A DNA stretch of 62,786 nt, the filler included, from Psammoneis japonica (lineage: Eukaryota): NCBI GenBank assembly GCA_008632985.1. It is 4 parts of 4 records of this genome, joined end to end, with 100 filler letters (N's around TTAATTAATTAA, not from the genome) between each part and the next. Parts side by side here need not be neighbours in the genome. Positions count along the whole stretch, not along the records: positions 1 to 29,074 come from QPGO01000140.1; positions 29,175 to 58,384 come from QPGO01000160.1; positions 58,485 to 61,114 come from QPGO01000322.1; 1 more part is not named here. One strand, written 5' to 3'. The position numbers and the translations under genes are program-made. The number at the start of each line of letters is the position of its first letter. Within the stretch, counting starts at the first letter, position 1. The notes beneath the pieces were generated by a model, which was not told the origin of the DNA, ran no database searches, and was given only the letters and a program-made list of their open reading frames with translations. Shown here piece after piece: positions 11,229 to 59,930 of this stretch.

Positions 11229-14200
11229 CGAAGCAATGCAAAACAAGGCCAGAAGAGACACGCAGCAATAAGCAAATGAAAGCCAAGATAGCCATCCAGC
11301 GGTCCAGATTGTGGTTCACAACCGCTCGCACAATAAGCAAGCGTTGTATCGTTGTCAGTTGTCATCACCTTCATGGGCATGATGTGGAGGTTGGAGGCAA
11401 AGAAATCGTAGAGTTCGGAGCTCGTACTGTTCAGAAATGCTGACTGACGTCATTGGGGTTCGCAACAAAAAGCACACAAAATGTGACAGTGAAAAAACCG
11501 TTGGTTTTCCCGCCACATTTTCAAAAATTTGGAAACGGCAAGCCGACACGTCCCGGTAAATCCGCATCACTTCGCTCATTGTTGCACGAAGCACACAAAA
11601 ATCGCCATTTGACTTTTTGAAACACGTCGTCGTCGCGATTGCCATGGTCTCGTCTGTTCTCTGCTCAAGGTGAGACTTGTTCCAGACTTAGGTGCCCTCG
11701 CGCGCGAAAAAATGACCCTTTTCGCATGAAACGCGCGGTCCACACTTGCGGTACCATTTTCGATAGTAAAAACATAACAATTTTCAAATGTGTTGTTATG
11801 GGTACATACAGAAAGGTCTTGTGCGTGTACCCATGTATTCGAAACTGTGGATGGACTCAGTTATTAGTCCCTAAATTGTACCGTAAGTTGAGAGCTCTGT
11901 TTTCCGAGGAGCGATTTATAGATGTCTAAATGTGTGTAGAAACCTATGAAATATTATTCTTATATATAAATAAACCCTCTAACATAACATAATTAATCTT
12001 TGGTTAGAATGCGCGAATCCAACTTTGATTCAACGGATCGAATAAAACATACGTTGATTGATAAGTTTCGGACGACGTGAGAAGAAGGGTAGCTCAGCCC
12101 ACGCAATGGCGTCGACTTCGGACCATTTTTCACTGTTTAAGAGGCATAAACGATTGAGACACTTGAATCCTTCGAATATATTGAGGAAGTATACATGGTA
12201 ATGGCAAAGAAATGGTCCTTAGAGGCAAATTGTGAGTGAATTGAGGCTCAATTGTTGTTGCTGACAGATTTAGTATTATTGTGCCGCGCTGCAACCTGTA
12301 ACAAGCATTTTCACTATTGTTGTTGATGACATAGACTATATCAAATACGGAGGTCCTCGTTATGACATTAAATTTTCCATAAGGCTGAAAAAAGTGGGCC
12401 GTCATGGTCACTGAAAGCCATGGCCGGTTTGGCTGTTTGTTTGTTCGAGTTTTATTCTGTTTATTTTACTTATAAGCAATTAATATGATCAATACAATGA
12501 AATATGTACGATGTTGTATAAAGAATAAAAAATTTTTTTTTCTGCGAAAAGGGGGCATGTGCGCGCCACCTAAGTCTGGAACAAGTCGTGAGTCGATCGT
12601 CTCGTTCTCGTTGCGAATTAGATCTGCTGGAGTCAAGTCATTGAATGTCGTCCGCACACGATTGCCATGTGGACCTGAAGGCTTGGGTCCTTGACGGTTT
12701 TCCTCTGTGTGTTTGATTGCGCATGTCTTTGGAAGTCGGTTCGAGGCGAAATGACGATTGCCTGTCAAAGCAGCCCGTAGTTCCGACGGAGATGCACCAC
12801 GATTGCCAGCAAACTCGCTTCTTGCGTGTGCACTGAATGCTTGTAAACATCCAACACGGCAGTGACCCGGTGCCAACCAACGCACTTTTTAGTGCAACGG
12901 TTGTTCAAGCAGGAACCACATGAGGGCCAGCCCCTGCTTTCTTTTTTGAACGCACGCTGAACGCCTGTTGACATCGTGGACCAAGACGGTGCACTAGACA
13001 CCCCGAAGGGCAGCCTTTTTTGTGAAGGTTGTGAGGTGGTTCAGACCGCTTGAGTTGCTCATTGAGCATCTCACATCTGATCCCCCGCAGGTTCAACACT
13101 CCTGTGGGTCGCCGGCCCGTCATGTCAGCCACATTCTCCACGTCCCACAGCGTTTGAAGATCTGCTTTGTTGCATTTGCGATTGTGACCGTCTAGCTGAG
13201 TCATGCTTTGTAACTCACACTCTTTTTTCAGAATTGATTTCCATCATTTTGAGCAGACGAGTGTGAGTGGAGAAATGCAACAAGAGGAATCTGCACATTT
13301 GTGGTCGCAGCTGCGTTGGCAGTGACATTGAGAGGACTGCGGCATTCTCAAGGCTCATCATTGTGGTCATCTCATGTCAGTTGCAAGAAGACAAAGCGTT
13401 GAGTCGGATCGAAAAGGGTTTTCCTCGGCCTCCTTCGAGCATCTGTCATTCGAGTCACTCGGGTTTGAAACATGCCACCCAACGTGCATCTACCCAGTGT
13501 CTTGATGACGTCCCAGCAGCCGACGACACTCAGATTGACAGGGGTTTTCTCGAGCCCCTCCACCAAGTCGCTCGGAACATGATGCCGGCTGCACATCTAC
13601 CTCCGATCTCCATCAAATCCAAGAAGGATCCGACGTTCTTACGATGCAGGCGCCTCTGACCCTCGGCGGTTGTTGGACTTGACGTTTTCCCCGAGAAACA
13701 TCTCTCTCGCAACACTCTACACACACGAGGCGACTCTCTTGAGCATTGGAAGTTCTTCTCAATGAAATGTTTCCTCGAGAGTCATGTGCAAATGTGCGCC
13801 CCACCGATTTGCTCCATCGCGGTTCACGTGACAGTGGTTCTGTGTTGCAGATGTAGTCGACCCGAGTGTTTTCTCCAAGACACGGCACTGACAAAAATGT
13901 GCTGCTCCTGCGACGACTGGAAGAATGTTTCAGCCAGTCGAATGAAATGCAAACTCCAGCAAACAGCAGTGTCGAGACAACTCCCTGTCATGACGAACCA
14001 CGAAGCAAGCCTTGTGCACTGAGATGCATGAACACCGCCCAACGATGTCGAATCACCCGCGGTCTGCAGCGCCAAGGTGTGCGAAGAGATGTCCAATCGA
14101 CCGAACACCTGGCTTGCCGACAGTGCCTTGGCTTTCTGTGCTGCAGCACACTTGAGAAAGTTGCATCCCTTGCACACCCCCCCATGTTTCATTTTGCAAC

Positions 14201-14799
14201 CACAACATCTGAACTGCAGTGATTGCAGCATTTGCAGTGGAGTGTTCTTGCCGACCCTCACGGGTCATGGGTCCAGGGTTCTCATCCGTTCGTGCTTCAA
14301 CACTCGACTCAATCACGATTCGCCGGCCCGATCAGCTTCAACCCTCAATGCGGCCTGGAGGCCTGCGCTTTGATGCTTTGACGATGGGGTTGCGGGTGTT
14401 CTCGTCCGCCAAGGCAAGAAACACTTTTGTGTCATTATTGCACTTGTGATCTATGTCATGCCAAGACAACCAAGGCTTTTTCACCATGGACACCGCCGCA
14501 AATTGGCACGGCAGCTGACAAACAGAAACATGAGGGATCGGTCTCTCAATGCACGAGGAGTGTCTGCACTGAGGAGAACAGAGATGTTCTGGACGCGTTC
14601 TGTTCAATCAGTCATTCAATGGTCTGCAACTCTCACTCTACTTTCGATCGTGTCCAGAATTGATGTTGTCAATCAGGAAAATGGGCATTTGTTGGATCCA
14701 GAACAAGTTGGCAATGCGGACGATCCGTTTGGCATCACTCTTGCGTGTGCATTGGGCGGCATTTTTGCGCATCGTCATGTGGCTCAGATTTGGGCTGAT

Positions 14800-16072
14800 G
14801 CGAATGCGACAATTGGTGACATGACATTGAGGAGGAGCATCGTCCCATTGACTTTTCTCCTGTGCATCACCGACGAATCGATGATTGCTCTGACAACTGT
14901 GCCGAACGGACGACTCGATTCGACGTGGAGGAGTTGAGAGTGTTGCATGATTTGTTTGAGCTGCCCGACACAGTTCTTGTGCCATGTGCTCATGGGCATC
15001 ATTGCCAATTCACTGGTGAGGAATTGTTTTTGTTTTCCTTGACCAAGGTGGCACTTGGACTCGACAACACCGTGTTGGTGGATGACTGCTTTGGAGGCAG
15101 GGATTTGACTCGGTGGTCGCATGGATGCAGGTGGTTTTTGATGCATCTTGATGACAGATGTGCTCCTGTCATTGGACAAGAAGCACTTCAGAGATGGGTT
15201 GATGATTTTCCATTGTTCGCCAGAGCAACAGAGCACAAGCTGAAGCAACGGGCTGCTTGGACTGACCCAGATGCCAATCAAGCACACAACGTCCCCGGTC
15301 TTGTTCATCCACCAGGGGAATTCAACATCATGGGCTTTATGGATTGTTCAATTTTTGAAACAAACACTCCTGGAACAGGGCCAGCTGATGACTGGGTAGA
15401 TGCTCCTCGGTGCCCCGACTCGGACGACATTCAGCGATCTGTTCACACAGGCTGCAAACACGTTCACGGAATTGAGATGTCATCCACAGTCTTTCCAAAT
15501 GGCTTGTGCATTGCATGGGGTCCCACTTCAGCTCGCAGGCAAGCACAAAGTTGTCAGTTCTGTGCTGCAATTGTTTGTCATGTCAAACACAGGCACTCGT
15601 CGATTTGCGTTCGATTTTTGAGTTTCCCAGAGCTGACACCGATTTGCAGTGCTTGTCTGCCGTGAACCAGCACTTGGCAGACATGCAACAAGGACACTTT
15701 CAAGATGGCATGCTGTGTGCGGTGCACACAGACCGGGGATTTGCTCAACAACAATGTGCACTCCACGCACATCAACCTGGCCACAACGGGGTGCCGCCGC
15801 TCACGCCCATGCAAATGCTCGAAAATTGTCGGCTCAAGGTGGTGCGCATCACTGTGGAGTGGAGCTGTGGCATTGTGTCAAATGTGTTTCGTACATGCAG
15901 GACATTCTGCCCTTTCAAGCTTTGCCATGAAAGCCCGCATGCTTGCGAGCAGCTTCATGTGTCTTTTCCACTGACAAACTGCCACACGTGCTTTCATCAC
16001 AACCAGATTGGAGCGATCGGCACTTTTGGTGTTGATCCTCCATCAATTCAAAACTGCTTGAATTTACATTAG
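14800..16072 (+). pseudogene. Harbinger/DDE_Tnp_4-like transposase, frameshifted and hypermutated
   Basis: Motifs FTGEELFLFSL, GFMDCS, QRSV[Y>H]TG[Y>C]KHVHG, FPNG, V[Y>H]TDRGF, RITVEWS[Y>C]G and LTNCHTCF spread over two frames (intron or frameshift near 15540-15660). Confidence 0.75.
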
Positions 16073-16168
16073 ATGCAATGCAAACTTGGCATAGAATGCA
16101 GCTTCTTGCATCTTCACGTCACAGATCTCCTGGCACTTCTGTTGCCTGAAAACACACTCTAGCAACTT

Positions 16169-17200
16169 GGCGCGCAACTGCGTTCGTTTGGACATGTGAA
16201 AGAGAATTCTGATCTGCTCAAGGCATGGAAACAAAAATGCTGCCATTAGAAAGCACTCGTTCTGAAGATGGCATTGACACTGTTTGTTGTTGCAAAACTC
16301 CAATTGCTTCTGGAGTGACGCCCAGTTCATCAAAACGCACCATCAATTTGGCGTGCAATTGCGGTGTCGTTTGGATGTATAAAAGACCATTCTGATCTGC
16401 TCAAGATGTGGAAACAAAAATGCTGCCATTAAAAAGCACTCATTCTGTAGATGTCATTGACACTGTTTGTCATTGCAAAACTCCCATTAATTCTGGAGCA
16501 ACACCCAGTTGATGAAAACGCACCAGGAATTTGGCGCGCAATTGCGGTGTCGTTTGGACACACACAAAAGACTGTTCTGATCTGCTCAAGGTGTGGAAAC
16601 AAAAATGCCACCACAAGAAAGTACTCGTTCTGTAGATGTCATCAACACTGTTTGTTGTTGCAAAACTCCCATTGCTTCTGGAGTGACGCCTGCCGGCAGT
16701 TGATGAAAACGGACTCTAGGAATTTTTGGCGCGCAACTGCGGTGTCGTTTGGATGTGCAAAACAGAATTCTGATCTGCTTCAGGCATGGAAACAAAAACA
16801 CTGCCATTGGAAAGCACTCGTTCTGCAGATGTCATTGACGCTGTTCATTGTTGCAAAACTCCCATCAATTCTGGAGCAATGCCTGCCGGCAGTTAATGAA
16901 AACGGGCTGGGAATTTTTGGCGTGCAATTGCGGTGTCATTTGGACACACAAAACAGAATTCTGATCTGCTCAAGGCATGGAAACAAAAATGCCACCATTG
17001 GAAAGCACTTGTTCTGCAGATGGCATCAACACTGTTTGTTGTTGCAAAACTCCCATCACTTCTGGAGCAACGCCTGCCGGCAGTTCATGAAAACGGACTG
17101 GGAATTTTTGGCGCACAATTTTGCGGCGGCGTTCGGATGTGCACAACAGAGTTCTGATCTGCTCAAGTTGTGGAAACAAAAATGCTGCCATTGGAAAGTG
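16169..17200 (+). repeat. Tandem array, ~180-195 bp unit, ~5.5 copies
   Basis: Units start GGCGYGCAAYTGCG at ~16169, 16350, 16533, 16728, 16919 and 17110; each contains TTCTGATCTGCTCAAG and GGAAACAAAAATGC. Confidence 0.95.
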
Positions 17201-17254
17201 CTCGGCGACATGAAACATGCATCCCAATTTATGCCAAGCACAGCCTGATCTTTT

Positions 17255-18424
17255 TCAGGCCTGATCTTTAAAACACTCGTCTTGCAGCTGCTTGCAATGC
17301 TCTTGAAACCTTGAGACGTCGAGACCCGCACCCCTGCCCTGCGAGATCATTGTTGCTGCGGACGCCATTGTGCCCAACTGAAGCTTCCTCTTCTTGCGCT
17401 TGTTGAGTTCTCCAATCTCCTCCCTGGATGGGAGGAAAGCCTTGATGTCACTCAAGACTTTGTCTGCCTTCTCTTGGGTTTTTTTCCAAATCCAGCACAC
17501 CGTCCTTCGACCTGGGCTCCCCCCGCACTTTTCCATCAGGTCTCTCAGAGGGAGTGACAGCAATGCTTGGGACTGGACGCTTCTTGCTGAATGGTTTTGG
17601 AGGTGTGAGTTTGAGTTTGGCTTCGCTTGAAGCATTCGCAGCAGCCACTTCCTCCTTCCTTGCCGTCGCTTCTGACCTGGATTCTTCGTCCTTTTCTGTC
17701 AGATCTTTCTGCTCCTTCCACATGGCCAATGCAGAGATCTCACAAGGGGTGCGATGCCCTTCCTCCTTGTTTAAAGCGTGCTCAGCCAACGTGTCCACAA
17801 TGCCCCAGCATTTTTGTTGAAAAGTGCGATGCGCAAACTCACCAGTTGGCTTGAAACAGCCGCGCGAGCAGGGCCATCAGGTCCATCGTAGAACTCGCCC
17901 AGAACTGGCTGCCAGACTGACTTGGTGGTCGCATCTTTCGAAATGTGCTTGATGTGTAGATGTGCTTTCTTTGTTTGCATGACAAAGAGCAATTCGCACA
18001 ACAAGCTCTCGTTCTCGGGTTGCAGCAACTTTGGAAGCTTTGGCTTTTTTGTCACTCCTTTCTCCTCGTTGATCAAGTCAACTGTTGCATCCTCTGTAAG
18101 ATCAATTGAGAGATTCGTGATTTCCATGAGAGCTGCTTCTTCCCCATCCAAAGTCATAGAAGGGGCTGGCCCGGACGCAGAAATGACGCTGGCACCGGGG
18201 GTCGACTGTCCTGCTCCATTGTTTGTGCCAGAACCACCAGATCTGGAAGCTTTCTTCAACTCTTCCAAAGCCCATGCAAACTTGTGATGCTGTGGGTGTT
18301 CAGAAGACATGATGATGTGCTGCATGGATGCTATGGCTTGATTGTGATGCTCGTCGTGACGATCAATTGATGTGTTTATTGTTGCGATAGCGGGCGCGTT
18401 TCGCTTTCGTTGCGGAGTTCTCAT
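17255..18424 (-). pseudogene. Second (accessory) ORF of the Harbinger-like element, fragmented
   Basis: Charged low-complexity protein over three frames (17771-18424, 17448-17798, 17255-17635), convergent on the transposase. PIF/Harbinger elements typically carry a second DNA-binding ORF; no clear Myb motif seen. Confidence 0.4.
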
Positions 18425-18805: not shown

Positions 18806-20940
18806 ATGGGAATTCCTGCCGCTGAAATCGACCCGTCGGAATCGACATCGGAAGCACCGTCCGAGGACACATGGGAAGTAAAACACGACCCTTTCTTTGC
18901 GTTCATTCCCCAGCTTGCGAGATGGGGCACTTGCATCATTGGAGGTGAGCTCAATTCAGCAAAGAGCGCAGTGATTGGCTTTCCGACGTGGTACAAGGGA
19001 TACTTGCTGGACACGTATGACTTCTACAAGGCCAAGCCTCGGGTGTTGAACAAGGAGCTGATTTCTGGTTTTACAGTAGCATTATGCAAGTTCCAGAATC
19101 GATCGCTTTTTCGTTTGTCGCTGGTGTCCCACCTGTTTCGGGAATGCATGCAACGTTCTGGATGGCCACTATCACTGGTGTCTTTGGAGGAAAACCGGGA
19201 ATGATTTCAGGCGCCGCTGGAGCTCTCGCGGTTGTGGTAGCGGACTTGACGGCTGATGATGGTGTTTTGGACTATCTTGACAAAAGTGAACGACTGAGCG
19301 TACTCTATATGACAATGTTTGTCTGCGGCCTTATGCAGATAGCATTTGCAGTTTTGCGTCTTGCCAAATTGGTTCGACTTATTCCAGAGACAGGCATGAT
19401 TGGTTTTATGAATGGATTGGCCATAATCATTTTCATGGCACAACTGCCGGCCTTTCAATATTGTCCAAACCAAACTCTATTTGTTGAATGTACTGTTGAC
19501 GAGCGTAAATGGCTTACCTTTCAAGAGAATACGTTGATCTTGGTTCTTACATTGGCTCACGTCTTTGGCTGCATGTTGATAATGAAATTCTTCTCCAAAA
19601 TTCCAAAGATTGGTAAGGTCTTCCCTCCATCACTGATTGCCCTTCTGATGGGTACTTTGATTGAGCATACGCTTTTTCGAAAGACGTTTGGTGTTGCGAC
19701 CCGAACCGTTGAAGAGACTGCGCCGGTAAATGGTGACTTTCCCTCTTTCAACTGGCCTGATATTCCCACCGATTCCAACACTATTAGCGTGATGTTTCAA
19801 TTTGCGATTACGCTCGCTTCGAGTGAGTATAGTTGTTGGGTGCTTTCGCATGGCTCTTTTCCATGCATGCCTTTCATTTTGCTAACTATGAGCACCCATT
19901 GTCATATTCTTCTCAGTTGGTGCCGTTGAATCTGTGTTGACCCTCCAAGCTTGCAACGAAATCACCGACACGGTACCAAGATCAGGGATTCTAACCAAGA
20001 ACTGTTTGCTCAAGGTCTAGCAAATACCGTCTGTGGGCTCTTCAGTGCTATGGGAGGAGATGCCATGATTGGACAGTCAACCATCAATATTATGAATGGA
20101 GCACGGCGCCGTGTGTCATCTACAATGTCGGGTGTCTTCATGTTGTTATTTGTCGTCGCACTCAGTCCCCTCATCGACTTACCTCCCGTCGCCACTCTGA
20201 CTGGTGTTCTTTTTATGGTAGTGCTTTCAACGTTTCAATGGAAGACGTTTATGATTTTGCGTTATGGGCGATTGTCTGACAGCTGCGCGATTCTGTTGGT
20301 GACATTGCTGGCCATATTTTTCAATCTCGCCATTGCGATCGTTGCCGGGATTCTTTTTTCAGCATTAGTTCATGCTTGGGATTCGGGAAATCTAGTTGAT
20401 GCAGTTACTGTTTACAAGAGAATGATTGTCAATGGCGAAGTTACCGATGTCAAATTTGTTCGCATTCAGGGCGCTATCTTCTTTGGGTCGTCTCGGAAGT
20501 TTATCAACCTCTTTAACGTCAAAGAAGATCCTCCAACCATAATTATCGACTTCGAGAATGCACTTGTGATTGACCACAGCGCTGTTGCTGCAATCCAAGG
20601 CATAACGCACCGTTTCGCAAAAGTTGGGAAACGAGTTCTACTGACGAATCTCCCCAAGAAGTCACACCGCCGAATGCAAAGAACGGGAGATCATGATATG
20701 CTCAGGGAGCAAGTGACAGACTCGTCTCATTTTCAGAATGTTGATATTGAGACAGACACAATACCGGAAGAATCATCTTCGTCCGAACAAACTAAACACA
20801 CCGACGACGCGGACAGCGAAACGGAGTATGAGTTTTCGATTCAAGATTTGCCAATGTTTCAGAAACCCGTTGAGGGCGTTGATACGGAGCTTGCTAAACT
20901 TGCCTATAATCAGGGCCAAGTTAGCATCCACGAGACATAA
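18806..20940 (+). CDS. SulP/SLC26 anion (sulfate/bicarbonate) transporter with STAS domain
   Basis: Motifs QVPESIAFS, GGKPGMISGAAGA, GFMNGLAIIIF, NQELFAQGLAN, MGGDAMIGQS, GAIFFGS and IDHSAV. Intron 19823-19916. Apparent 1-nt deletions at ~19083 and ~19978, both in short A runs. Confidence 0.92.
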
Positions 20941-22433: not shown

Positions 22434-22762
22434 TGTAACAACGATACCCACTCCTCTTTTTGTGGATGGTTATTGATGCGCCGTGTCCCGTGTCGTCAAG
22501 TAGTGTCAAGTGTTGTGAATGGATGATGAATGCTGATGGTCGGCGCGCGGTCGCTTTGCTCCGCGCAGAGCGCGTGTGTGGTAGTGGCGCGGGACTGCTT
22601 GTGACGTGGCACCTTTTCAAAATTTCAATGCAAATGTGCCGCTGTACGACGTATTCAGAACGATTCTTGAGCTTCTGGAGACAGAACTTTTTTTTGCTCC
22701 ATAAAAAGAGGATTATATGATGAAAAATTGAAATACGTGGCACACTGGCGATGGTTGCTGGC

Positions 22763-22834: not shown

Positions 22835-22839
22835 TGTTT

Positions 22840-41157: not shown

Positions 41158-41208
41158 GGACAGGGGCCGGCTGGCCCTAGAGCCGGCCTGCAGCCCTCCT
41201 CTGCTCAC

Positions 41209-48727: not shown

Positions 48728-49070
48728 ATGACAATGCCAGAAACAAAGTTGTTGCAGCCTTGGGGTGAGAGGATTTGGATTGTTGATGGGCCAGAAATTG
48801 GCATCAGTGGCTGCCCTCTCACAACACAAATGGCCGTGGTGCACATGCACAGTGGTGGTGCATGGTCGTGGAGTCTAACTCCTTGTTCAGCAGAGTTGGC
48901 ATGAGAGATTGATGGGTGATGTGGCAAAGTCTGGTTCATTGTCGCACCAAATCAAAGCCATCACTTGCATCTCAAGGAATGGTGGTCAGAGCAGTGTCCA
49001 CAAGCCAAAATTCTTGCCCTTGGATTGGCACGCTCACTTGTGAAGAGCTGTGCTTGACTTTGAAATTGTG
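48728..49070 (+). pseudogene. DUF4336-family gene fragment
   Basis: LQPWGERIWIVDGP, TQMAVV, GGAWSWS and FIVAPNQSHHLHLKEW, with stops and frameshifts. Confidence 0.65.
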
Positions 49071-49169
49071 TTGGAAAGACTGCAATGCCAACGCCAATCT
49101 CACACTCACATCACTGTTGCCCCATTGACACTGCAAGACATGTGCAGAGATTGTGACAGGCCCTGCAGG

Positions 49170-49780
49170 GATAGAATGTGGTGCCGGGGCTGCTGTGACT
49201 TGGCATTGTTGTCCTTGTCTCTAAGTGCAGTGCTGCATTTGCAATTCGTTCAGCACACACTTCATCCTTTTCACCAGTGTCCACCTTTTCACACCGGCTG
49301 AACTTCAGTGATCTAGCAGAAATGACAAAAGCAACCTTAACATGGGACTCTTGAATTCACCAACAAGTCTTCGTGGTGGTGCAGACATCCTGGAAACAGT
49401 GTCATGGACGCTCACGTCAGGTCCACTTGGCACACTAAGTTCACGGGGTGCAGCTGCAAGTGTGGAGGTGCCCCTGACGTTGTATCGTCTCAAGGGTTTA
49501 GCTTTTTGGTTGGCTATGGATATTCGGTGCTCGCCATTGGAATAGCCATGACTCGAGCATTTGGAATCAACCTGGCAGATACGTCTTCTCCCTTGACGAG
49601 CGCTGTCATGTTTTATGGATTCCGTTTACTAGGCACGTATCTAGCGTTTCGCACCTTGACGGTGAACATCGAAACGGTTGGATCAAGAACAGCTTGAAAC
49701 GTGTGGGGGGCAAGAAGCATACGACAAGTGGAGGTCCGACGTTAGAGCGAAAATCTTTCCGTTTGTCAACAAAGAACAGA
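49170..49780 (+). pseudogene. Internally deleted duplicate of the DUF1295 gene at 35578-36618
   Basis: Colinear nucleotide match with ~420 bp missing (36088-36505), frameshifts and stop TAG->CAG. Flank similarity continues to ~49925. Confidence 0.92.
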
Positions 49781-50523
49781 AGGGAAACATCTCATATTTA
49801 TGACAATGTCATAGTTCTGGTTCGTAGTTCCAGTTTCATATAAATGATGATACTTTAGTTCTACTCTACCCCACCATTTTCTTATAGGCTAGCTAGAGAG
49901 ACACAAACCTCCATGAGCCTGGATCCTCTACAATAGACTCGTTGTGCCTATCAACCTGTGGAAAGACATGAACAACGAAGTTTGCACTTTTAGGTAATGA
50001 AGGAACCGATGATTCTTGGAAAGACAAGGATACAAAAACGCAACGCAAGGGCGTGAAGACCCGCAGGAAGGTAGACCACAACACCAGCGTAGCGCCAACC
50101 AAATCGATGCGGAGCACGGCTGTACGCCCTGCTTCTCTCTCAAAGATGTTAAAGTCTCTTTGATACCTCTGAGATCGAACTGCTGCTGTCACCATTTCAG
50201 CTGCGACAGATAGAACAACACTATCTCCTATTCTCTTGAGCTTGATGCGGGCGCCAGATGATTTGTCCGCTAAAAAACAATTTCGACCTGTGGACCCATC
50301 CGTCCAAGGAACAAGTCACTCAGTGGTCAAGATTTGGTCGTCCATCAACCTGAAACATAGGGTGCACCGGTGGCAGCTTCACAGCCATCAAAACAAGACG
50401 TTCAGCCCATTGTTGCGCAGTCCGTGGAGCTCTCTCTCTAGAGTGTAGCTCTAATCTTTCTTCCCTTACCAACAACTTGTCACTTTCACGATTCGATGAT
50501 GGCGGACACTCTCTGGTTCCAGA

Positions 50524-51198
50524 TCAAAGTTTCTGAACTTGAAAACTAGCTCGTGTTTGCAGCAGATCGTCTCTCGCAACACTCCATTGGTCTTTGTTGG
50601 CCTCCAGTAGGAACACATACAGCCGTTTGTTCAAAATCGTGGTTGAAACCAAAAAGATAGAATTGTCGGATGGAACGACCACATCGAATTCAAAGTAGAT
50701 ATCCGAACCATTTTTAGCTAAAGACCTGGTGTTGATAAGATTGCCTGACGAGAGTTTCTGTTTTAAGCCATCTCCAATCCGATCCCCAATGTCCAACGAT
50801 CTAGAAAGAGAAAAGGTGCCAACCATTGCCTTTTCCAGTCGTTCTGCGGTTGCAGTTCCTGTCTTTTGATACACAATGACTCGATTGCAGGCGGACGGTG
50901 GCGGTTCCTTGTACGTAATTCTAAAAGCCGAGCCCTGATGAGAACTGCTCAAGCCGTTGATTGCAATAGGAAACCCGCCTGTTTCTTTCTCATCCCATAA
51001 AAGCTCTACTGTTTTGCTTGCAACCGGCTGAGCAAGTAAGCCCCAGGAAGCTGCTCCAGCAGTGGCGACAAGGACATAACGGCGTTGAAGGAGCATGTTT
51101 CGGCATGTAGAAGTTTTAGATGCTCTGCTTTGCAGCCCATTGCTAACAGAACCACTCAGTGTCAATGCAGCTGTGAAGAATAAAACGAAGCGATACAT
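50524..51198 (-). CDS. PsbP-like thylakoid lumen protein
   Basis: Signal peptide, twin-arginine RRYVL lumen signal and C-terminal RLYVFLLEANKDQW...RASFQV. Confidence 0.65.
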   Translation of the reverse strand: MYRFVLFFTAALTLSGSVSNGLQSRASKTSTCRNMLLQRRYVLVATAGAASWGLLAQPVASKTVELLWDEKETGGFPIAINGLSSSHQGSAFRITYKEPPPSACNRVIVYQKTGTATAERLEKAMVGTFSLSRSLDIGDRIGDGLKQKLSSGNLINTRSLAKNGSDIYFEFDVVVPSDNSIFLVSTTILNKRLYVFLLEANKDQWSVARDDLLQTRASFQVQKL

Positions 51199-51357
51199 CC
51201 GAGCGGAGAATGTGCTTCAGTGATGTGAAGAGGCTGTTTGACTTGAAAGAGCTCTTGTCGTCGCGTTGTGCTGGGGCTTCGCGAGGACCGAACTCTAAGA
51301 CGGCGGTGCTGTCGCGTCGAAAACCTAACGACATTTGAAAAACGAAAACCGTTGGCC

Positions 51358-52143
51358 ATGAGCGTTTGCAGTGTCCGAAGTTTGGCGAAGGGCGATACGT
51401 TTCGATGTTCATGGGTGGCATCGGAGGACGACGCGTTGTCAGTGACTACTACAAACTCATCAGCTACTGTAAGGAGAAGCAACGTTTCAAAAAAAATGTC
51501 TGGCAATGCACAGCCGCAGCACCCCTGCGACTTGATTGAGGTTTGTGTTGGATGTCTGGAACCAATTTTACGATCTTTTTATGAGAGCAACCCTCAGACT
51601 TTGGTGTCTGCTGTGTCTGCTGTGAAAGGTTGTGTTGCTGGCACTCAAGATCTCAATGACAATGAGATCCTTGCGCGGTTCACCAGTGCTTTGCAAAACC
51701 TGCGCGATGCAGCTCCGGCAGCCGTGATCGACAACCCGGAACCCAAAAGCGGAGGTGATGATTCGAAATCCAAAAGCAGAGACAATGATTCCAAGCTCAA
51801 TCAGGAAATAAATGTGAACAAAGAAGGAGGTGATGAGGACGTGAGCGTTCTCAAAACTGAAGAATCCCCCAGTGCAGCAGTGTTGGGTCCCCCACGGGCT
51901 GCAGGAAGCTCTTCTGCTCGATCCTCAAGTGGCTTTTCTTTGGGCACAGCAAGTGCCACCTGTTTTGCCACTGATGCATCTTTTGAGGCTGAGATGGCTG
52001 AGTCGCGAGTCTTGTCAATTCTGAGTCCAATCCCAGTTCATCATCCCACGCAAGGTGCTGTTTTGTCTCAAGAGGAACAAATTGCTGCTTCGGAAAAGAA
52101 TCCACCTGCAAAAAAACAGAAGCGGGAGTGCACGAAACACTGA
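51358..52143 (+). pseudogene. Inverted duplicate of 37329-38108 carrying TpA mutations
   Basis: Same protein with YSW>CSW, QYPY>QHPC and VYV>VCV; frame still open. Confidence 0.8.
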
Positions 52144-52527
52144 AGAAGAACATTGGCATTGTCAATCCTGTGTGATCGTGGCCACCAAAACTTTTCTGGC
52201 GTGGCAAAATTGGCAACAATCACAACTCCAACTCGTTGGTGTCTTGCTGCCAGCAGCACGTTGCATTTGCACGCCATTTGGAGCCTGTTCAATTGCCACT
52301 GCTGTGGCTCTTTACTGCCAACAGTGGGGCCCTGTGCCTGAATCATGGGCATCGGAATCACCACAGGGAATCATCAGAACGCCGAGCAAGAAAACATTGA
52401 AGTGAACATTTTTTTCCAATGAGTTGCCGGAAACGGGTTGCTTGGTGACAACTTCTGTTGTGATGGGCCCGCCACCGCCCAACTCCATTGCCACCACCAC
52501 CCTTCCAGCAATGCATGCAATGCCTTT

Positions 52528-54770
52528 TTACAATTTGTCCAGCAAGTCACTGGGATCAGGAACCTTTTCACTCAAGCCTTTTTGGATCCGAGCTTGACGT
52601 GTGATCTCCTCCTCTTCATTCGATGGCACCATCTTCATGCCAGAGTGTGCACACGAGCAGTGAGCATGGCCCTTGGTGGCCAAGCACAAGGCATCGGCCA
52701 ATCCAAAGGAGCGTCATGCAGGCAAGGATGCTTGGAGTGAATTGGTTGTCACAGTGCTTTGAGTGTCCTCGATGGTGGCACCGCGTTCTCCTGGAACCGA
52801 GTGAACTCCATTCAACGTTCCAGCGGCTCCCAAAATTTCGGCTCGGCACATGGGTTCCACCAGATGTGGTTGCGCCAGCAAGAAGGCACCCTTCATGGCA
52901 CGAGCCGCAGCTGCCACCATCGAACCTGGACGATGGTGAACTGCATCTGAATGGAATTTGGTGTCCATCAAGTCGAATCAAACACCTCGCAAAGCCGAGT
53001 GGACCAGTGCGCCTTGGCGTGTAACTTGTTGAAAGGCCACAATGATGTTCTCTTTGGCATCTTGAGGGATCTGAAGACCAAAGGTCGAGTCCACCAAAAG
53101 ACAAGTGGGTTGACTGGCGTCGTTGTCTTCTTTCTTGTTGCCAAGTGGCTGGGGACCAACAGACCAGATTCAAGCATCATTGCTGCTCCAGCCAAAGTCA
53201 CTTGCCAGCCTTGATCCGAGTTGCTTGGGATTCAGACCCATCAAATCTCCTGACGCCATGGCTTCTGCCAAGTCTTCGCCCAGTGGAGAAGCCTTGATGT
53301 AGATGCGATTGTGCTTGTCATTGCTCTTGGCCAGTGCCACTTCCGAAGAATCTTCATGGACGGTCTCGTGACAGGCAATCATGGGTTCCGAAAGGACGAC
53401 TTCAATGCCCGTGCTGTCCACAACGGAAGATGCCAAAACTTGAATGTGCAACTCTCCGGCTCCCGCCAAAGTGCATTGTTCCATTTCAGGATCTCGGAAA
53501 AAGATGGCCGTCGAGTCGGCATTGACGACTCAATGCATTCCCGCCACCATCTTGGTGAGGTTTTTCTTGTCCTTGGGTTGAACCGAATGGTGCAAAATGG
53601 GAGTGACCGACAGAGTCATGTGTCGAATCAGTTGAGCATCTGGTGCACTTGCCAAAGTGCCCGACTTGTTCAACACTTGATCCAATCCTTCCAAGGCAAT
53701 CAATTGACCCACACTTGCCGAGGGAATGGCAAACATTTGTTCACCAATTCCACAAAGCTGGATTTGCTTGATTCTTGCTTGTCCTTCGCTGCCATCTGTT
53801 CTCAAGGCACGGACCACATCACCCGTCTGAATCGTGCCACCAAAGACGCATCCAAAGGCAAGCAGGTTTTTGCTCTTTTCACTGGCAGGTGCCATTTTGG
53901 AAATGCACACAATCAAGGGCGCTTCGGGATCGCAATCGGCAATTCCTTGACTGGAAGGGTCTTGAAGATCTCCCGAGCAGAGCAAAGGAGCTCGAAGACG
54001 CTGGGCTTGGACACTGGCAAAGGCACATGAGCAGCTGCCATGTCGACAATGGCATCGGCAGTGGGTGGCCAGGTCATCATGGCCTTCTTCAACAGCTTGC
54101 GAGGATCCAAAGTGGATGCGTCTTCGCCGTCTCTGAGAAGACGAATCCGAGACTTGGAAGGAACCAGCTTGGTCAAGGCCTTGGAGACAGTTTCCAAATT
54201 TTCTTCCGGTGTTGGTGTGTTGCCTGTCAAGGTGGGTAGAACTCCAGCGGCTCAGTTCATTTGGACAACAGGCCTCAAAATGTGCTTGATGAAATTCTCT
54301 CGCTTGGACAATGTTTTGTGAATGACTTGTTCGGAGGCAGAAGAATCTTCCTTTTGGAACAGGGGCAAGAACGAGTCGATGGAACAGCTCCATCCAAAGT
54401 GGCCACTTCCGAAACATGCCAATCCTTCTTCCAAGCTTGCACGTTGATCTGGGAAATTGTTGCGTTGATGTGTGGCAATGAATCCACCAATGTCCTGAAT
54501 GACAAGTTGAAGTCGATCATGAATCTCTTTGGGACTCAATTGTTGATCGACAATGAAGCGATCGACCTTGTTGATCATCAGAATGGGATGGACCCCTTCA
54601 CGAAGGCTTTGAATCAAGACTTGTTCTGTCTGGACGGCCTTGCCTTCGAGGGCATCCACCACCACCACCAAGGCTCCATCCAAGACACGCAAGGTGGCCG
54701 TGACTTCGGCATTGAACTCAATGTGGCCCGGCGAATCAATCAAGTTGACAGTCAACGGAACCATGGCAGC
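52528..54770 (-). pseudogene. Divergent eEF2-like translational GTPase, disrupted
   Basis: VNLIDSPGH, VQTEQVL, INKVDR, FGSG..GW, ISKM, KSGTL, AGAGELHI, ETV, KSNDKHNRIY, HSDAVH, EPM and the C-terminus LLDKL*. Several frameshifts and stops; G1 motif not found. Confidence 0.88.
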
Positions 54771-55314
54771 GTTGCCAACAAATTCTTTGTCAGATGACTC
54801 TTCCTCATTCTTGATCTTGTTGGACTCCCGTTGGGCTTCCTCGTCATTGGTGCTGTTGCTTCCGTGTTGTTGATTCCAGAAACAAAGGCACTCTTCCGCG
54901 GATGCCTTGCGAGCTTCGTGTCTCATTGCGCATCCATGGTGTTCTGGAGCCTGAATCAGCACTCCTCCCAACAACGGCCAATCTGCCATGCCACGTGAAT
55001 TGAGCTTCAAACCGCTGTGGAACCGTTTCTGGCTCGAGCTCCATCCACCAGTCGTGATGGAATGCGTTTGAGGAGGAAGGATGACTGGAGATGTCTCCTT
55101 TGTGTTCACTCCAAAAAGACAGTCTTCTCCAGATGCACGCAGCACCAAGCAAGTGTCCAAGGATTCGCAGTCCTTTGGACTGAAAAAAAAATTGAAGCAT
55201 TTTGCTCTGCTTGAAGCAAAACAGTGTCAAGTTGAGAACAAGGTTCGTGTTTCCCACCGCATCTATGAAGAAGCGTCCAAACTCTACACCAAAGGGCTCC
55301 TTGTAATGCACGAG

Positions 55315-55560
55315 TCAGAGTGACACCAATGGATGTCCCTGCAGTGCATCCAACCACACCCCACACAGTGCAGCCATGGCGAGCCCACGTCCCCCCTCTT
55401 GTTTGAACTGTCCGGCAAAGGTTGCAGCGGTGGCAGGTCCTCCAATGGCTGCATTGCTCGCGACCAAGACGTGTTTTATTTGCATCTTGATGCACATCAG
55501 TTGACTCAAAACAAAAGACCCAGCAATGCAACCCCAACATGCACCAGCAGCGCAAGCAAG
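55315..55560 (-). pseudogene. DUF819-like membrane protein fragment
   Basis: VLVASNAAIGGPATAATFA motif. Confidence 0.6.
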
Positions 55561-55679
55561 CTAAACACCAGGACACCCCCTTGTCCCTCTCATCGCGCAC
55601 ACACATCCCAGGATGAAACAAGTGCCTCAGATGATTCTACCTCCAACTTGGAGAAGTTGTGCCAGATGCCGGTTTTTTC

Positions 55680-58384
55680 TCATTTTTGCTGCAGCTGCAC
55701 TGGGGACCTGCTCCATCGAACACAGACAACCGATGGCTGCATCTGGCAGTGCAGCATCCTGTGCCAGCGACCTGCCATGGCAGGATGACTGATGGCAATG
55801 CTCCTTGACAGTGCGTCAAGTTTGCCTTGCTCAAAGACATTTCCCTTTAGATGCCGGTCTGGAGCATCCCTCTCTGGAGTCTTGTAACCAGCTGGCAAAA
55901 AGCCCGCAGAGGGTGCCAGCATTGACTGGCAATCATTGAGTTGGTTGATTGGCCAGTTGTTTGGACAACAAAGTGACCAGGTGGTGTCTGTGAAAGTGAC
56001 AGCTGCACTCTGATGGAAGGGATTCCATCCCTCATTGCAAGTGGTGTTGCACAAATCCATCAAGTTTCTGTGTGGCTTGTTCTGTGAGTTGTGGATGTGC
56101 TGCATCGTTTTGGCATTTCCACATGCCCTGAGGAATGTTGAGCAGCTGTTTGATCCAGTGTTGCACCCATTTGGCACCTGTTTTGTGGGAGGGGCACAGA
56201 ATCCATCAAGTTCCTGTGTGGCTTGTTCTGTGAGTTGTGGATGTGCTGCATTGTTTTGGCATTTCCACATGCCCTGAGGAATGTTGAGCAGCTGTTTGAT
56301 CCAGTGTTGCACCCATTTGGCACCTGTTTTGTGGGAGGGGCACAGACAGAAGTGTTTGTCTTGCAGTTGGGACCACTCTCTCATGAGACAGCCAAGTTTG
56401 CCTTGCTCAAACACATTTCCCTTTTAGATGCCGGTCTGGAGCATCCCTCTCCGGAGTCTTGTAACTGGCTGGCCAAAAGCCCACAGAGGGTGCCAGCATT
56501 GACTGGCAATCATTGAGTTGATTGATTGGTTGGTTGCTTGGATGACAAAGTGACCAGGTGGTGTCCGTGAAAGTGACAGCCACACTCTGATGGAAGGAAT
56601 TCCATCCCTCATTGGAATGGTGTTGCACGAATCCATCAAGTTCCTGAGTGGCTTGTTCTGTGAGTTGTGGATAATGTGCTGCATCATTTTGGCATTTCCA
56701 CATGCCTTGAGGAATGTTGAGCAGCTGTTTGATCCAGTGTTGCACCCATTTGGCACCTGTTTTGTGGGAGGAGCACAGACAGAAGTGTTCGTCTTGCAGT
56801 TTTGACCACTCTCTCACGAGACAGCCTTCCAGGAGCCTGTCCCACCCGACGATGCACTGGGAATGAATGGCTTGTCAAAGGATCAGACTGGCAAAGTTGT
56901 TGTGTGCAATGGGGATGTTTTGGTGCTTTCCATGCCTGAAGATGGCTCTGCATTGCTTGGGAAAACCCTGAACATCATGTTGTTGTTGTCCATCCATTTG
57001 ACACACATTTTCTGCAGCATTTCACTCCAGCCACTTTGCCATGGCTTTCAGGCATGCCAGAATGTGTTGGACATCTTCATCATCTTCTTCACAGCATGGG
57101 CAGTGGGAGCAGTCTTGCATCTTCCATCATTGGAGCCACTTGCCTGCCCCACAGATGCCAGTTGCATGTTTTGCGAGCCAGCGTCAGTGTCCGATTCCCA
57201 GTTGGTCAGCCACTTTGTCAATCGCTTCCTGGTCAACTTTTCAAATGCCCTGTCATGAGAAATGTTGTTTTTTGTGCACCTGGCAGTGAACCACTTTGGT
57301 GCCACAAGTGCAACCCAGCAGTCATTCCAGAAGTTTGGCGGACATTTTGCACTCACCTGTGCAGACCAACCACAGTTCATCCTTGATGTTGAGCTGTCTT
57401 GGGCCTGGATTTGATCAGGCAACCTCTTGCCATTTGGCTTTTGCAAGGTTGTCCATTTGCATGTCAAGTCTTGCCCATCAATCCAGTTTGCATCTTGCAT
57501 TTTCCGTCTTGATGCCTTTTCACCCACCCAAACTTCCACGTGAGTTTGCTTTGTTTTGGCTTGGTTTTTGCGGCACTCAGCAGGTCAAAGTTGTTGGAGC
57601 ACAGTGCAACATGTTTGTGGGAGTTGAACGTCTTGTTGAGTGCCTGATCCCCACCACATGCCACTTTGATCTGAGTTTGTTTTTTTCTGCTGAACGTCCT
57701 TTTGTTTTGCTGGGCCCCACTGCTGAGAATGGTGGGCACATGATGCACAAAGCAGCAGCCAAGCTAACCCAACAAGCATGACTCAGTTTCAGTGCTGCAA
57801 ATTCGCCGTTGGCATGCAACAGCCGGAAAGCATGGAAACCACCACACCATGGTGACTCTGCAGTTGCCATTTTCTCAATGGCATCACCTTCAAGAGCCAC
57901 AACAATCAACAATGTTTTGCAAGGAGTTGCCCCAATGCTCCAAAGGTCTTGCATGGCTTGTCCAGAAATTGACTGCTCACTCCAATTTCCAGTTTGTGTT
58001 TTTCAAGAAGCACACAGATGAGATCACCAGTGACAGTTTGTTGCTTGCCGTGTTTGACAAATGCTTTGATGTGTTTCTTGCACATGGCAAATTTGATTGA
58101 CTGGAAACCCAGACCTTGACTGACAACCCAAGGGAGTGAGCGGCACAATCCAGCTCTTGGGAGGCCATGTCAGAGAGCAGGAGCTTTGATGCATCTGCAC
58201 TTTTTGGAGTCAAGCGTGAGTGCCAGCAGTGGGCAATCAAGCACTTTCCACATTTTTTGTGTGAGAGAAAGCCATGCATCTGCTTTGGCGAGGTGGCCAG
58301 TGTGGACTTGGTCAGCCCATGCCTCCATTTGTTTGCACAGGGTTTTGACTGCTTTGTTGCAGTTGCCATCTGGGGCCAACCAAA
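55680..58384 (-). mobile_element. Decayed non-LTR retrotransposon (post-RT / RNase H region) with internal tandem duplications
   Basis: LAPDGN, ADAWLSLTQKMWKVLD[Y>C]PL and WVQHWIKQLLNI.QGMWK[Y>C]QN motifs. 55815-56200 is repeated at 56390-56780; 56053-56200 is repeated at ~56201-56345. Confidence 0.65.
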
Positions 58385-58484
58385 NNNNNNNNNNNNNNNN
58401 NNNNNNNNNNNNNNNNNNNNNNNNNNNNTTAATTAATTAANNNNNNNNNNNNNNNNNNNNNNNNNNNNNNNNNNNNNNNNNNNN

Positions 58485-59930
58485 ATCTCTTTTCCTCCCC
58501 CTTGAGGTTGTCAAGTGCAGCCTGAAGCACTGCCATGATGTGAAGTGCACGATGCCAAATGGACACATTTTTTCACAGTCGGCAGCCAGATTCTTGTCAT
58601 CCTGATCAGGCAACACTGACTTAAAGCCATGTGGATGATTGACAACAGCAGACAAAATGTCAAGCGCATCTTGTGCAACTGTCTTTACATCAACGTCATC
58701 TGGGTAACCAAGGTCGGTGCAAAAATGCTGTGCACTTGAGTCGAATCCCAACAGTGTGTCGAGTGCAATTTGTCACTGACAGAATCCAACTCTTCAACTG
58801 ACATCCCATCATCTCTTTTTCTTCAGAAAGATGTTGTTTCTTCTTTGCTTGTTGTGCTTTGTCACTGTTGAGTGTGTCTGGATCTGTGTTGGGTGGCATT
58901 TGGTGTGGTCAAGTGCAGTTCTTCCAAATTTTGTCTTGACAGATCCACTTTGCAGCCGCACTTCACAGAGTCATTGCCAGTTGCGCGTGGTGGACAAAGG
59001 TGCCAATGGGGCTTGCCAAATGGTGACAAAAAGAAACATTTGTTGTGAGTTTTCCACCCTTCTCAAGGCCACATGAGCACTCCGTTTTGCACAGATTCTC
59101 ACTTCGTCAGCAACAACATTGTTCTCCTTTGCAACATTTGAAATGCCCCGACACTTCCACACTGCTTCTTCAACTCTCTGCCCATGATTTGGACCCCCTC
59201 ATCATTGACATTGAATTTTGCATTGTGGTGCTCTGCCACTCTGCTGGCATCCATTGATTCTGAACGCAAGAATCCAAGAACAGCCAATGCATGTGTTTTG
59301 ATGCGAACAATTTTTGGACATCAGACATGATGGTTTTTTGCACTTCGGCCCTCAGGGAGCTTCGCAGGTGGGTTGGCAAGGTGGGCACAGGTTGCAGTGC
59401 CAAAAGCCAAGGATTTTCAAGAAGCTGTGAATGTCGTCGTTGAGCAACCAGGCACGTGACAATTCTCATTCTTTTTGTTTTCCCTCCAATGAAATGAACT
59501 TCAACTTGGTGACGTGTTGTGCTGTTCACACAGAAATCTGCACCAAATTTCGAACAATCAATTCCAGCCACAAGCCACACCCAACAAGGAACCTGCATCC
59601 AAGGATCCGGGATCTTTGTTGGATGCCGCACACTTGCAGCAGCAGCAGCAGGGACCTTTCTTCATTTCAAGATTTTTGCCTGGGTGTGGACAGACTGCAC
59701 ATCAAGCAGATTTTGCTTGCCGCACTCCATCACCATGCATACACAGGTGCTCACAATGATTGATCATGTTGTTTCCATGCGTGGTCCAGTCGGTGGTCGG
59801 CGGGTGTGGGATGACGAAGGTTCAACGCACCAGCAGTCACAAGATGGCGGTGGAGGCTGCACTTGTTCATCGCCTTGGCAAACTCAAGGCTTGGTTGGTT
59901 TCATCCATTTGGGATTCCCAAAATGGCAAG
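58485..59930. other. TpA/CpG-depleted degenerate block, unidentified
   Basis: Composition as in the other mutated blocks; no motif recognised. Confidence 0.5.

Follow-up and report, generated by a model that had tools for sequence, protein, structure and literature searches.

The window analysed here is a stretch of 62,786 nucleotides from the diatom Psammoneis japonica; it consists of four contigs that were joined artificially, and neighbours across the joints are not necessarily adjacent in the genome. Among its intron-poor host genes lie discrete blocks, with transposon remnants and host-gene copies among their contents, from which the dinucleotide TA has almost vanished. A previous sequence-only reading had ascribed these blocks to a DNA-level process that changes A:T to G:C specifically at TpA. 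The analysis presented below, which covers this one window and the reads of one sample, supports that claim, and we are highly confident that a real, TpA-specific and domain-limited process of DNA mutation has been at work.

TA-depleted blocks and their composition

Segmentation at no more than three TA per 300 bp delimited seven blocks. They are listed here with their observed/expected ratios (O/E), together with the partly depleted left end of the window.

1-1600, plus strand: remnant of a Copia-type reverse transcriptase (RT), partly TA-depleted, with an open reading frame (ORF) at 2-1180; TA O/E 0.28
1846-2995, strand unassigned: weaker TA-depleted block without Pfam match; 15 TA, O/E 0.20; CG O/E 0.89
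12527-18377: TA-depleted block with a DNA-transposon remnant and a tandem array; 41 TA, O/E 0.11; CG O/E 0.72
22715-24326: TA- and CpG-depleted block without Pfam match; 9 TA, O/E 0.09; CG 0.29, TG 1.69, CA 1.83
29828-31167: block within an aminotransferase gene copy; TA O/E 0.11, CG O/E 0.29
38862-44965, plus strand: GC-rich (61%) TA-depleted retroelement; 36 TA, O/E 0.15; CG O/E 0.87
45800-49338: TA- and CpG-depleted block; 18 TA, O/E 0.08; CG 0.24, TG 1.82, CA 1.80
51466-59963: largest TA-depleted block, with gene fragments and CpG-poor sequence; 30 TA, O/E 0.06; CG O/E 0.44

The last of these crosses the joint at 58385-58484; it is made up of 51466-58384 on one contig and 58485-59963 on another. 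Together the blocks cover 28,094 bp, which is 45% of the window, and hold 160 TA (5.7 per kb) versus 1,455 in the 34,692 bp elsewhere (41.9 per kb). The pooled TA O/E is 0.10 in the blocks and 0.59 in the rest (0.40 for the whole window), and the corresponding values are 1.61 versus 1.19 for TG and 1.59 versus 1.17 for CA (1.38 and 1.36 for the whole window). CG stands at 0.60 in the blocks versus 0.98 in the rest, ranging among the blocks from 0.24 to 0.89, with values of 0.24-0.44 in four of them. Because the remaining 12 dinucleotides stay at 0.86-1.25 in blocks and rest alike, the effect on composition is specific to TA, with CG varyingly affected. Over whole blocks the loss of TA is balanced solely by the gain of TG and CA; these two rise about equally in every block, and therefore both strands have been hit, as the sequence-only reading had held. 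Its counts by hand proved exact (no TA in 22783-23803, where 57.8 are expected, one in 56674-58384, where 109.7 are expected, and five in 19201-19320), and the blocks that it had called almost devoid of TA have TA O/E of 0.05-0.14, apart from the 0.28 of 1-1600. The boundaries of the blocks are abrupt, to within tens of bases.

Directional change in duplicated segments

Self-BLAST located duplicate pairs of which one copy lies in the TA-normal region 35579-38110 and the other at sites running into blocks. The following features are concerned, a spared repeat beside them included.

35579-36086, 36506-36787 and 37325-38110, plus strand: unmutated reference copies of host segments in an ancestral-like state; TA O/E 0.38-0.75
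49179-49926, plus strand: duplicate of 35579-36787 over a block edge, with graded TA loss
51356-52147, minus strand: duplicate of 37325-38110 (786 aligned bases, 93.9% identity), containing the edge of a mutated domain
38159-38893, plus strand: spared repeat R, with an inverted partner at 44987-45736; it adjoins depleted blocks

Segment 35579-36086 pairs with 49179-49666 and 36506-36787 with 49667-49926, and two further pairs are inverted, 37325-38110 with the reverse complement of 51356-52147 and 38159-38893 with that of 44987-45736. Taken as wholes, 35579-38893 and 44987-52147 represent a rearranged, mostly inverted and near-palindromic segmental duplication around the GC-rich retroelement, and TA-depleted insertions sit between the second copies.

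Compared with 37325-38110, the copy at 51356-52147 has kept 8 of 18 ancestral TA, five having become TG and five CA, and has gained no new TA; at its CG sites 31 of 46 are kept, 10 have turned into TG and five into CA. Over the three pairs the in-block copy carries TG or CA at 23 of 59 aligned ancestral TA, and seven more of these sites changed otherwise. The reverse change, a TA in the block copy at a TG or CA site, was found 0, 1 and 2 times in the three pairs, and only one copy is mutated in each of the three duplicates. Counted per adenine on both strands, A>G affects 23 of 119 adenines at TpA (19%), as against 6 of 231 at ApA, 7 of 212 at CpA and 7 of 214 at GpA. This enrichment at TpA over all other NpA contexts (20/657; Fisher odds ratio 7.6, p=1.8e-9) bears out what the sequence-only reading had supposed. 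In the control pair outside the blocks, repeat R and its inverted partner (86.5% identity), change is symmetric, with four sites of TA>TG/CA and 10 of TG/CA>TA. The composition of the blocks is a footprint of directional mutation and not native composition. GC-biased gene conversion was considered as its source and rejected, since the contexts ApA, CpA and GpA show no increase in A>G.

Domain edges, a spared repeat and a tandem array

The duplicates also reveal where the mutated domains end. One edge lies near 51480-51500, about 130 bp inside the duplicated segment 51356-52147: to the left of 51480 five of six TA are kept, and to the right nine of 12 are lost. In the other duplicate, 49179-49460 shows 7 of 12 ancestral TA changed to TG or CA (three kept, two otherwise changed), and 49480-49926 shows 6 of 30 (21 kept, three otherwise changed). 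Across edges in duplicated host DNA the fall-off is graded over 100-700 bp. As these edges lie inside duplicated DNA, the process acted on the DNA in place, with leakage on the scale of nucleosomes.

Repeat R and its partner differ by 13.5% over 731 aligned bases, and their TA O/E is 0.69-0.98. The summed depth of contigs matching this repeat is 1,400-4,400, compared with 55-230 in bins of 46317-55800, a depth that is not to be read as a copy number; no Pfam match was found for it. The sparing of repeat R, with its normal TA and symmetric changes, and the mutation of one copy per duplicate indicate that sequence repetition as such is not the trigger, and the description of the process as repeat-targeted and similar to fungal repeat-induced point mutation (RIP) has to be given up.

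Further evidence comes from an array within block 12527-18377.

16167-17198: 191-bp tandem array, 5.5 copies with 81% matches according to Tandem Repeats Finder (TRF)

Where its six units are aligned, 15 dinucleotide columns have TG in some units and CA in others; 12 of these columns are without CG (four of them still with TA in one unit) and three contain CG as well. Five more columns combine CG with TG or CA only. Among the 46 adjacent double differences between units 16 are CA/TG, and the next class has three. Each unit must therefore have taken hits of its own, on one strand or the other, once the array existed. Together with the domain edges inside duplicated host DNA, this divergence in place makes editing at the RNA stage unlikely, in agreement with the sequence-only reading.

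Sequence context and CpG decay

The TA that survive are not a random sample. Relative to the rest of the window, their frequency in the blocks is 0.05 for RTAY, 0.13 for RTAR and YTAY and 0.29 for YTAR (R, purine; Y, pyrimidine), and the order RTAY < RTAR/YTAY < YTAR is the same in all three subsets of blocks, CpG-retaining and CpG-poor included. In the CpG-retaining blocks NTGY is increased (1.28-1.55) and NTGR hardly (1.04-1.12). For 42 polarised events the base 3' of the adenine on the edited strand was C in 22, T in 12, A in four and G in four, and at sites where one strand offers Y and the other R, the Y strand was edited in 15 of 20 (two-sided p=0.04). The preferred target is 5'-TAY-3'. 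A comparison of trinucleotide gain and loss between blocks and rest was set aside, as it is confounded by differing base composition.

The decay of CpG is a separate and variable overlay, parallel to the loss of TA in many but not all TA-depleted domains. Its separateness follows from block 38862-44965, where TA was lost with CG O/E at 0.87.

Host-gene copies and damage to proteins

Two copies of host genes lie in depleted sequence.

29666-31231, minus strand: hypermutated copy of a class-III aminotransferase gene, an open frame of 522 aa
52531-54992, minus strand: hypermutated, 5'-truncated copy of an EF2-like GTPase gene, with a frameshift near 54012 and five in-frame stops

The best homologue of the aminotransferase copy shares 50% identity over 88% of the query. 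At columns at least 70% conserved in 19 homologues, none of three tyrosines is kept (two are His, one Cys), as opposed to Gly 20/20, Asp 6/6 and Asn 4/4 among the other conserved columns. The copy holds 5 Tyr, 18 Cys and 22 His; its homologues have 6-14 Tyr. The EF2-like copy matches homologues of 1,037 and 1,092 aa at 51-56% identity in two frames (tblastn). None of its seven tyrosines at columns at least 75% conserved in 12 homologues is kept (four Cys, three His), whereas the other conserved columns are largely intact (Asp 26/26, Trp 5/5, Pro 24/25); its Arg changes of the CpG type gave three stops, three His and two Cys. In the two copies together all 10 conserved tyrosines have been changed, five to Cys and five to His. 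Among stop words and reverse-complement stop words in the blocks, those with TA number 211, and none outnumbers TGA (578).

The retroelement and its relatives

Block 38862-44965 holds a retroelement that still looks largely coherent.

41158-43230, plus strand: RT ORF, with a weak RVT_1 match (E 0.015)
38888-39026 and 44573-44711: direct repeats A (self-BLAST)
44443-44574 and 44735-44866: direct repeats B (self-BLAST)

The layout A...B-A-B of split direct repeats is one that we take to be typical of tyrosine-recombinase retroelements (DIRS/Ngaro/PAT-like); at E<=5, the stretch 42887-44467 gave no match to a recombinase domain. The RT ORF has 4,659 homologues at E<=0.001. Set against their medians it is poor in Tyr (0.6% versus 2.0%) and rich in Cys (2.5 versus 1.2) and His (4.9 versus 3.6). 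It retains YADD at residues 342-345, and of four conserved Tyr columns one is kept and the others hold C, D and Q. The in-frame stops that join the ORFs of the element are TGA only. By a hand tally, codon positions 1-2 hold 6 of the 29 TA that survive in its four ORFs; for a set of eight host ORFs the figure is 72 of 322.

A profile built from the RT ORF and 31 homologues yielded 79 metagenomic loci with relatives of the element. All 79 have TA O/E of 0.44-0.85, loci at 60-63% GC included, and only one of their 754 windows of 1 kb falls below 0.25. Family members in other genomes are thus not free of TA, a point on which the sequence-only reading could have failed, and the depletion is not intrinsic to the element family. 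In the sole low window, L014:1001-2000, TA O/E is 0.23 and TG/CA 1.36, which may be due to chance or to a milder action of this process in a different host.

Other contents of the blocks

The targets comprise RT, Copia-RT and DDE remnants as well as host-gene copies (aminotransferase, EF2-like, a DUF819 fragment and an unnamed ORF). At the left end of the window ORF 2-1180 gives a weak RVT_2 match (E 2e-4, 21.4 bits, under the cut-off of 31.6) and, as we judge by eye, presumably has HVDD in place of the Copia RT motif YVDD. In block 12527-18377, ORF 15476-16069 (plus strand) has a weak DDE_Tnp_4 match (E 1.7e-4, below cut-off), and the ORFs within 14820-16069 look by eye like what we take to be a Harbinger/PIF transposase with His or Cys at the expected Tyr positions (e.g., ...HTGCKHVHG...). 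ORF 14820-15662, presumably the N-terminal part of this transposase, also produced a match to a Bd3614-like deaminase, which was discarded as noise (E 0.27, 11.7 bits versus a cut-off of 38.5). The largest block contains two further features.

55318-55560, minus strand: DUF819 fragment (E 7.7e-7)
56049-56399: tandem repeats (TRF)

A Pfam re-scan of 86 short and 14 long ORFs from the unassigned blocks returned this DUF819 fragment and a weak RVT_1 match only; 1846-2995, 22715-24326, 45800-49338 and 55600-59963 received no Pfam classification, and no viral genes were found in the blocks of the window. Of the targets listed in the sequence-only reading, the RT element with split direct repeats and the host-gene copies were confirmed, as were, by weak matches, the Copia-type RT and DDE_Tnp_4 remnants; a non-LTR (long terminal repeat) element was not.

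Support from sequencing reads

The blocks were compared with Logan contigs, built from exact 31-letter words of a sequencing run that holds 77% of the sampled words. A contig of 656 bp matches 46586-47241 with no differences (word depth 39), and another of 582 bp matches 46026-46606 with two (word depth 35), so that the reads support the bases of the blocks, as the sequence-only reading had anticipated. At 80% likeness 2,037 contigs were gathered. Their differences include 400 A>G, 406 T>C, 418 C>T and 423 G>A, with 62-79 for each transversion; near-equality of the four transitions is expected from independent TG and CA outcomes. Among 40 of the 2,254 difference rows, adjacent CA/TG swaps were seen at 39791-2, 40565-6, 55092-3 and 55120-1.

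TA-normal parts of the window

Outside the blocks lie the spacers and the host genes.

29075-29174, 58385-58484 and 61115-61214: N44-TTAATTAATTAA-N44 spacers, with stops in all six frames
TA-normal parts (Pfam): host genes for an SLC4-type bicarbonate transporter, a sulfate permease, DUF155 and a mitochondrial carrier
TA-normal parts (Pfam): further host genes for MORN, ankyrin/TPR, DUF1295 and PsbP-like proteins

These host genes are intron-poor by Pfam, with domains unbroken over at least 250 residues, in contrast to those of Bigelowiella natans, which are described as rich in introns. Among the 120 matches listed for the ORF of the SLC4-type transporter the named homologues are all from diatoms, the best named one at 66%, as befits a diatom host. 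The frame of this gene runs on past a single TAA (8838-8840) in T-rich sequence, and that of the sulfate permease past a single TGA (19927-19929). Both stops probably belong to short in-frame introns rather than to a variant code; an alternative genetic code was considered and dropped, as the nearby T-rich sequence resembles short introns. At the right end, 61215-62786 holds direct repeats of about 650 bp (96-98% identity) with normal TA content, and ORF 61911-62411 (minus strand) in it matches the repeat domain DUF7507/DUF11; this is probably a repetitive surface-protein gene that continues beyond the window.

Comparison with known systems

The sequence-only reading knew of no description of such a process. 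The same signature has since been found described by Mettrop et al. (bioRxiv 10.64898/2026.01.13.699255), who report that viral DNA integrated in the genome of the chlorarachniophyte Bigelowiella natans is locally hypermutated from TpA to TpG and CpA. In mutation-accumulation lines, 231 of 302 nuclear single-nucleotide mutations fell in two integrated viral regions; 230 of the 231 were A>G or T>C, all of those at TpA, at rates about 1000-fold over background, and they arose in integrated single-copy DNA (bioRxiv 10.64898/2026.01.13.699255). The same text describes 124 clusters of TpA-poor, CpA- and TpG-rich windows in 95 Mb (rho 0.45 for the viral region) and an enrichment of DDE-endonuclease and RT domains among TpA-poor coding sequences. 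Its authors propose DNA adenine deamination, naming an ADAT2 homologue and citing DNA editing by amphioxus ADAT2 (bioRxiv 10.64898/2026.01.13.699255).

The two cases have in common the near-exclusive A>G/T>C change, the restriction to TpA, the TG and CA products, the discrete regions and a long-term depletion of TpA with gain of CpA and TpG. They differ in host, here a diatom; in extent, which here approaches saturation over 45% of the window, compared with 124 clusters in 95 Mb; in targets, which here are transposon remnants and host-gene duplicates rather than viral inserts; and in evidence, since B. natans offers direct de novo mutations and the diatom case is known from its footprint in sequence. 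In the literature searched we found no description of the signature in diatoms, and the process itself was described only in the B. natans preprint; the words 'diatom', 'trinucleotide' and 'context' are absent from its main text. New here are the host lineage, which is far from chlorarachniophytes, the near-saturation extent and the range of targets, together with the preference for TAY over TAR, the gradient at domain edges and the sparing of repeat R. The CpG overlay is a further feature of the diatom window.

Fungal RIP resembles this process in making dinucleotide-specific transitions at the DNA level that disable transposons and duplicated genes and leak into flanks. Its chemistry is the opposite: RIP changes C to T mainly at CpA and creates TpA, whereas here TpA is down to 0.10 and CpA up to 1.59. 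RIP mutates both duplicates by homology, whereas here a single copy is hit and repeat R, old and with high summed depth, is spared; and RIP makes stop codons, whereas the diatom process removes two of the three. CpG decay from 5-methylcytosine (5mC) gives TG and CA as well and is found in most of the same blocks, but it cannot remove TA, which was lost at CpG O/E of 0.87 (38862-44965) and 0.72 (12527-18377).

ADAR hyper-editing and APOBEC3 share with the diatom case the deaminase-driven hypermutation of repeats or retroelements. ADAR acts on RNA, whereas here both DNA strands and non-retroelement sequences are hit and a 3' pyrimidine is preferred; APOBEC changes C to U on one cDNA (complementary DNA) strand, whereas here both strands are affected. 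The closest enzymatic parallel is with the tRNA deaminases TadA and ADAT2-ADAT3, which target an A preceded by U or T. In nature TadA and ADAT2 act on A34 after the invariant U33, and we know of no demonstration of natural genome-scale DNA editing by this family in any alga. For a variant of TadA-8e, a review describes editing within a YAC context.

Proposed mechanism and its alternatives

We consider it rather probable, as a whole account, that A:T>G:C mutation at 5'-TA-3' took place in situ, limited to chromatin domains, in transposon remnants and stray or duplicated pieces of host genes within the nuclear genome of the diatom, and that an adenine deaminase was the probable agent. On the chemistry taken by itself, adenine deamination has in our judgement an even chance. 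The likeliest agent would be a DNA-acting adenine deaminase with the TadA/ADAT2-like preference for A after U or T, its product inosine being read as G. A deaminase related to that of tRNA A34 is proposed because T is required before A and TAC and TAT are preferred. Its access would be confined to domains that are silenced or foreign, perhaps by targeting through silent chromatin or small RNAs, and it may serve in defence. TA being palindromic, a hit on the A of the top strand would give TG and one on the bottom strand CA, and equal amounts of both would result because TA is its own reverse complement. TAY sites would be hit several-fold more readily than TAR, and repetition over many generations would remove about 90% of TA. 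Tyr codons would turn into Cys or His and the stops TAA and TAG would vanish; with these two stops lost, frames would stay open while encoding damaged proteins. Ile-ATA and many Leu and Val codons would be erased as well, and promoter and polyadenylation signals that contain TA may go with them. Decay of CpG to TpG and CpA, presumably from 5mC, would run in parallel in many of the same domains.

Several points weigh against this account. A>G at TpA is indistinguishable from T>C on the other strand, and a thymine-directed chemistry fits equally. The events of the tandem array are not mutually independent, and the within-site test of the TAY bias (15:5) is only modestly significant. What suggests a role for silenced chromatin is the CpG decay, of which block 38862-44965 has little. 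The YADD motif and the long frames of the RT element, and the presence of D or Q at two of its four conserved Tyr columns, imply that its TA poverty could be partly lineage-inherited. Finally, the run compared may be the source of the assembly itself, so its contigs exclude consensus errors and are not an independent confirmation, and the detail on their differences comes from 40 of 2,254 rows.

The first of these points opens the way to the strongest alternative, which we nevertheless judge unlikely. Thymine at TpA in silenced domains would be modified or oxidised, for example from 5-hydroxymethyluracil (5hmU) to 5-formyluracil by a dioxygenase of the TET/JBP type, and its mispairing with G would lead to T>C on either strand, a change that a palindromic dinucleotide makes inseparable from A>G in sequence data. 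In dinoflagellates 5hmU is enriched at TpA and TpC, and 5-formyluracil does mispair with G. The TAY>TAR bias argues for deamination of adenine instead, as it matches the U-A-C preference of TadA-type deaminases. Expressed in terms of thymine the bias would be R-T-A, for which no precedent is known to us.

Somewhat less probable still is that the blocks arrived TA-poor, through editing of cDNA or transposition intermediates before integration, or through many earlier insertions in the history of a lineage. Edges at element ends that are sharp to tens of bases would suit such an origin, as would the preserved reading frames and YADD of the RT element. Against it stand the graded domain edges inside duplicated host DNA, tandem units that diverged through independent TG and CA hits after duplication, and the mutation of host-gene copies without sign of mobility. 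Both strands are equally hit, unlike in the editing of single-stranded cDNA, and the B. natans mutations, according to the main text of the preprint, arise in integrated single-copy DNA.

Error-prone patch repair in methylated or heterochromatic DNA, with A>G changes at WA (W, A or T) of the kind made by DNA polymerase eta in the second phase of somatic hypermutation, seems improbable to us. Polymerase eta errs preferentially by T>C/A>G at WA, more strongly at TA, and the CpG decay that accompanies TA loss in most blocks could have supplied T:G mismatches to start the repair. However, WA includes AA, and ApA is not elevated over CpA and GpA in the duplicates; block 38862-44965 combines TA at 0.15 with nearly intact CpG; and TA has been removed almost completely, which points to a dedicated activity.

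Selection against TA (by a TA-cutting nuclease or TA-targeting insertions) or a TA-poor donor genome might be invoked for frames that remain open and for the one element that is largely coherent. We regard this as very improbable in view of the destruction of 10 of 10 invariant tyrosines of host enzymes, the polarity of change in the duplicates, the ordinary TA content of 79 of 79 relatives elsewhere, and the finding that surviving TA in the RT element are not concentrated in Tyr codons.

Least credible of all, and about equally so, are two further explanations. In the first, transcripts of repeats would have undergone ADAR-like A-to-I editing and then been copied back into the genome by reverse transcription; in its favour is the preference of ADARs for a 5' U (bioRxiv 10.64898/2026.01.13.699255). 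It is largely refuted by divergence in place and leaves unexplained why gene fragments, tandem units, non-coding flanks and a remnant of a DNA transposon are mutated. A 3' pyrimidine is preferred here, with G in four of 42 events. The 3' preference of ADAR is G, and ADARs are to our knowledge metazoan. The second is a technical artefact: if a palindromic site with modified bases were systematically misread on both strands, in base calling or in the consensus, the outcome would likewise mix TG with CA, and the run compared may be the assembly's source. This is opposed by the match of read-derived contigs at depths of about 35-40 with 0-2 differences, by small contigs and a single ambiguous N that suggest a short-read or Sanger-type assembly, and by the differences among copies at these very sites, which are an evolutionary pattern. 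No base modification is known to us through which short-read chemistry would report A as G.

Significance

Before the 2026 preprint on one chlorarachniophyte there was no natural example of targeted A:T>G:C hypermutation of DNA. The same footprint, close to saturation, in a distant lineage suggests that the process is widespread and not a curiosity, and diatoms are among the most important marine primary producers. Mechanistic handles are provided by the TAY motif, the nucleosome-scale edges, the independence from duplication and a loss of TA that is in part independent of CpG methylation decay. Genome editing, too, could take an interest in a natural adenine deaminase that acts on DNA in a defined context. 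In practical terms, repeat and gene annotation of diatoms will misread such blocks, as their long open frames encode damaged proteins, and tests for foreign DNA based on dinucleotides are confounded by them.

A bolder proposal, which we put forward tentatively and would sooner doubt than assert, is that diatoms and chlorarachniophytes, and perhaps the SAR clade (stramenopiles, alveolates and Rhizaria) at large, share a chromatin-guided defence by a DNA adenine deaminase that derives from the tRNA A34 deaminase and retains its U/T-A-(C/Y) preference, and that this defence has reshaped much of the genome of this diatom. If true, fungal RIP would have a counterpart acting on adenine. Through the loss of every TA, and so of Tyr codons, TAA and TAG stops and the promoter and polyadenylation signals that contain TA, it would permanently disarm transposons, integrated viruses and misplaced gene copies.

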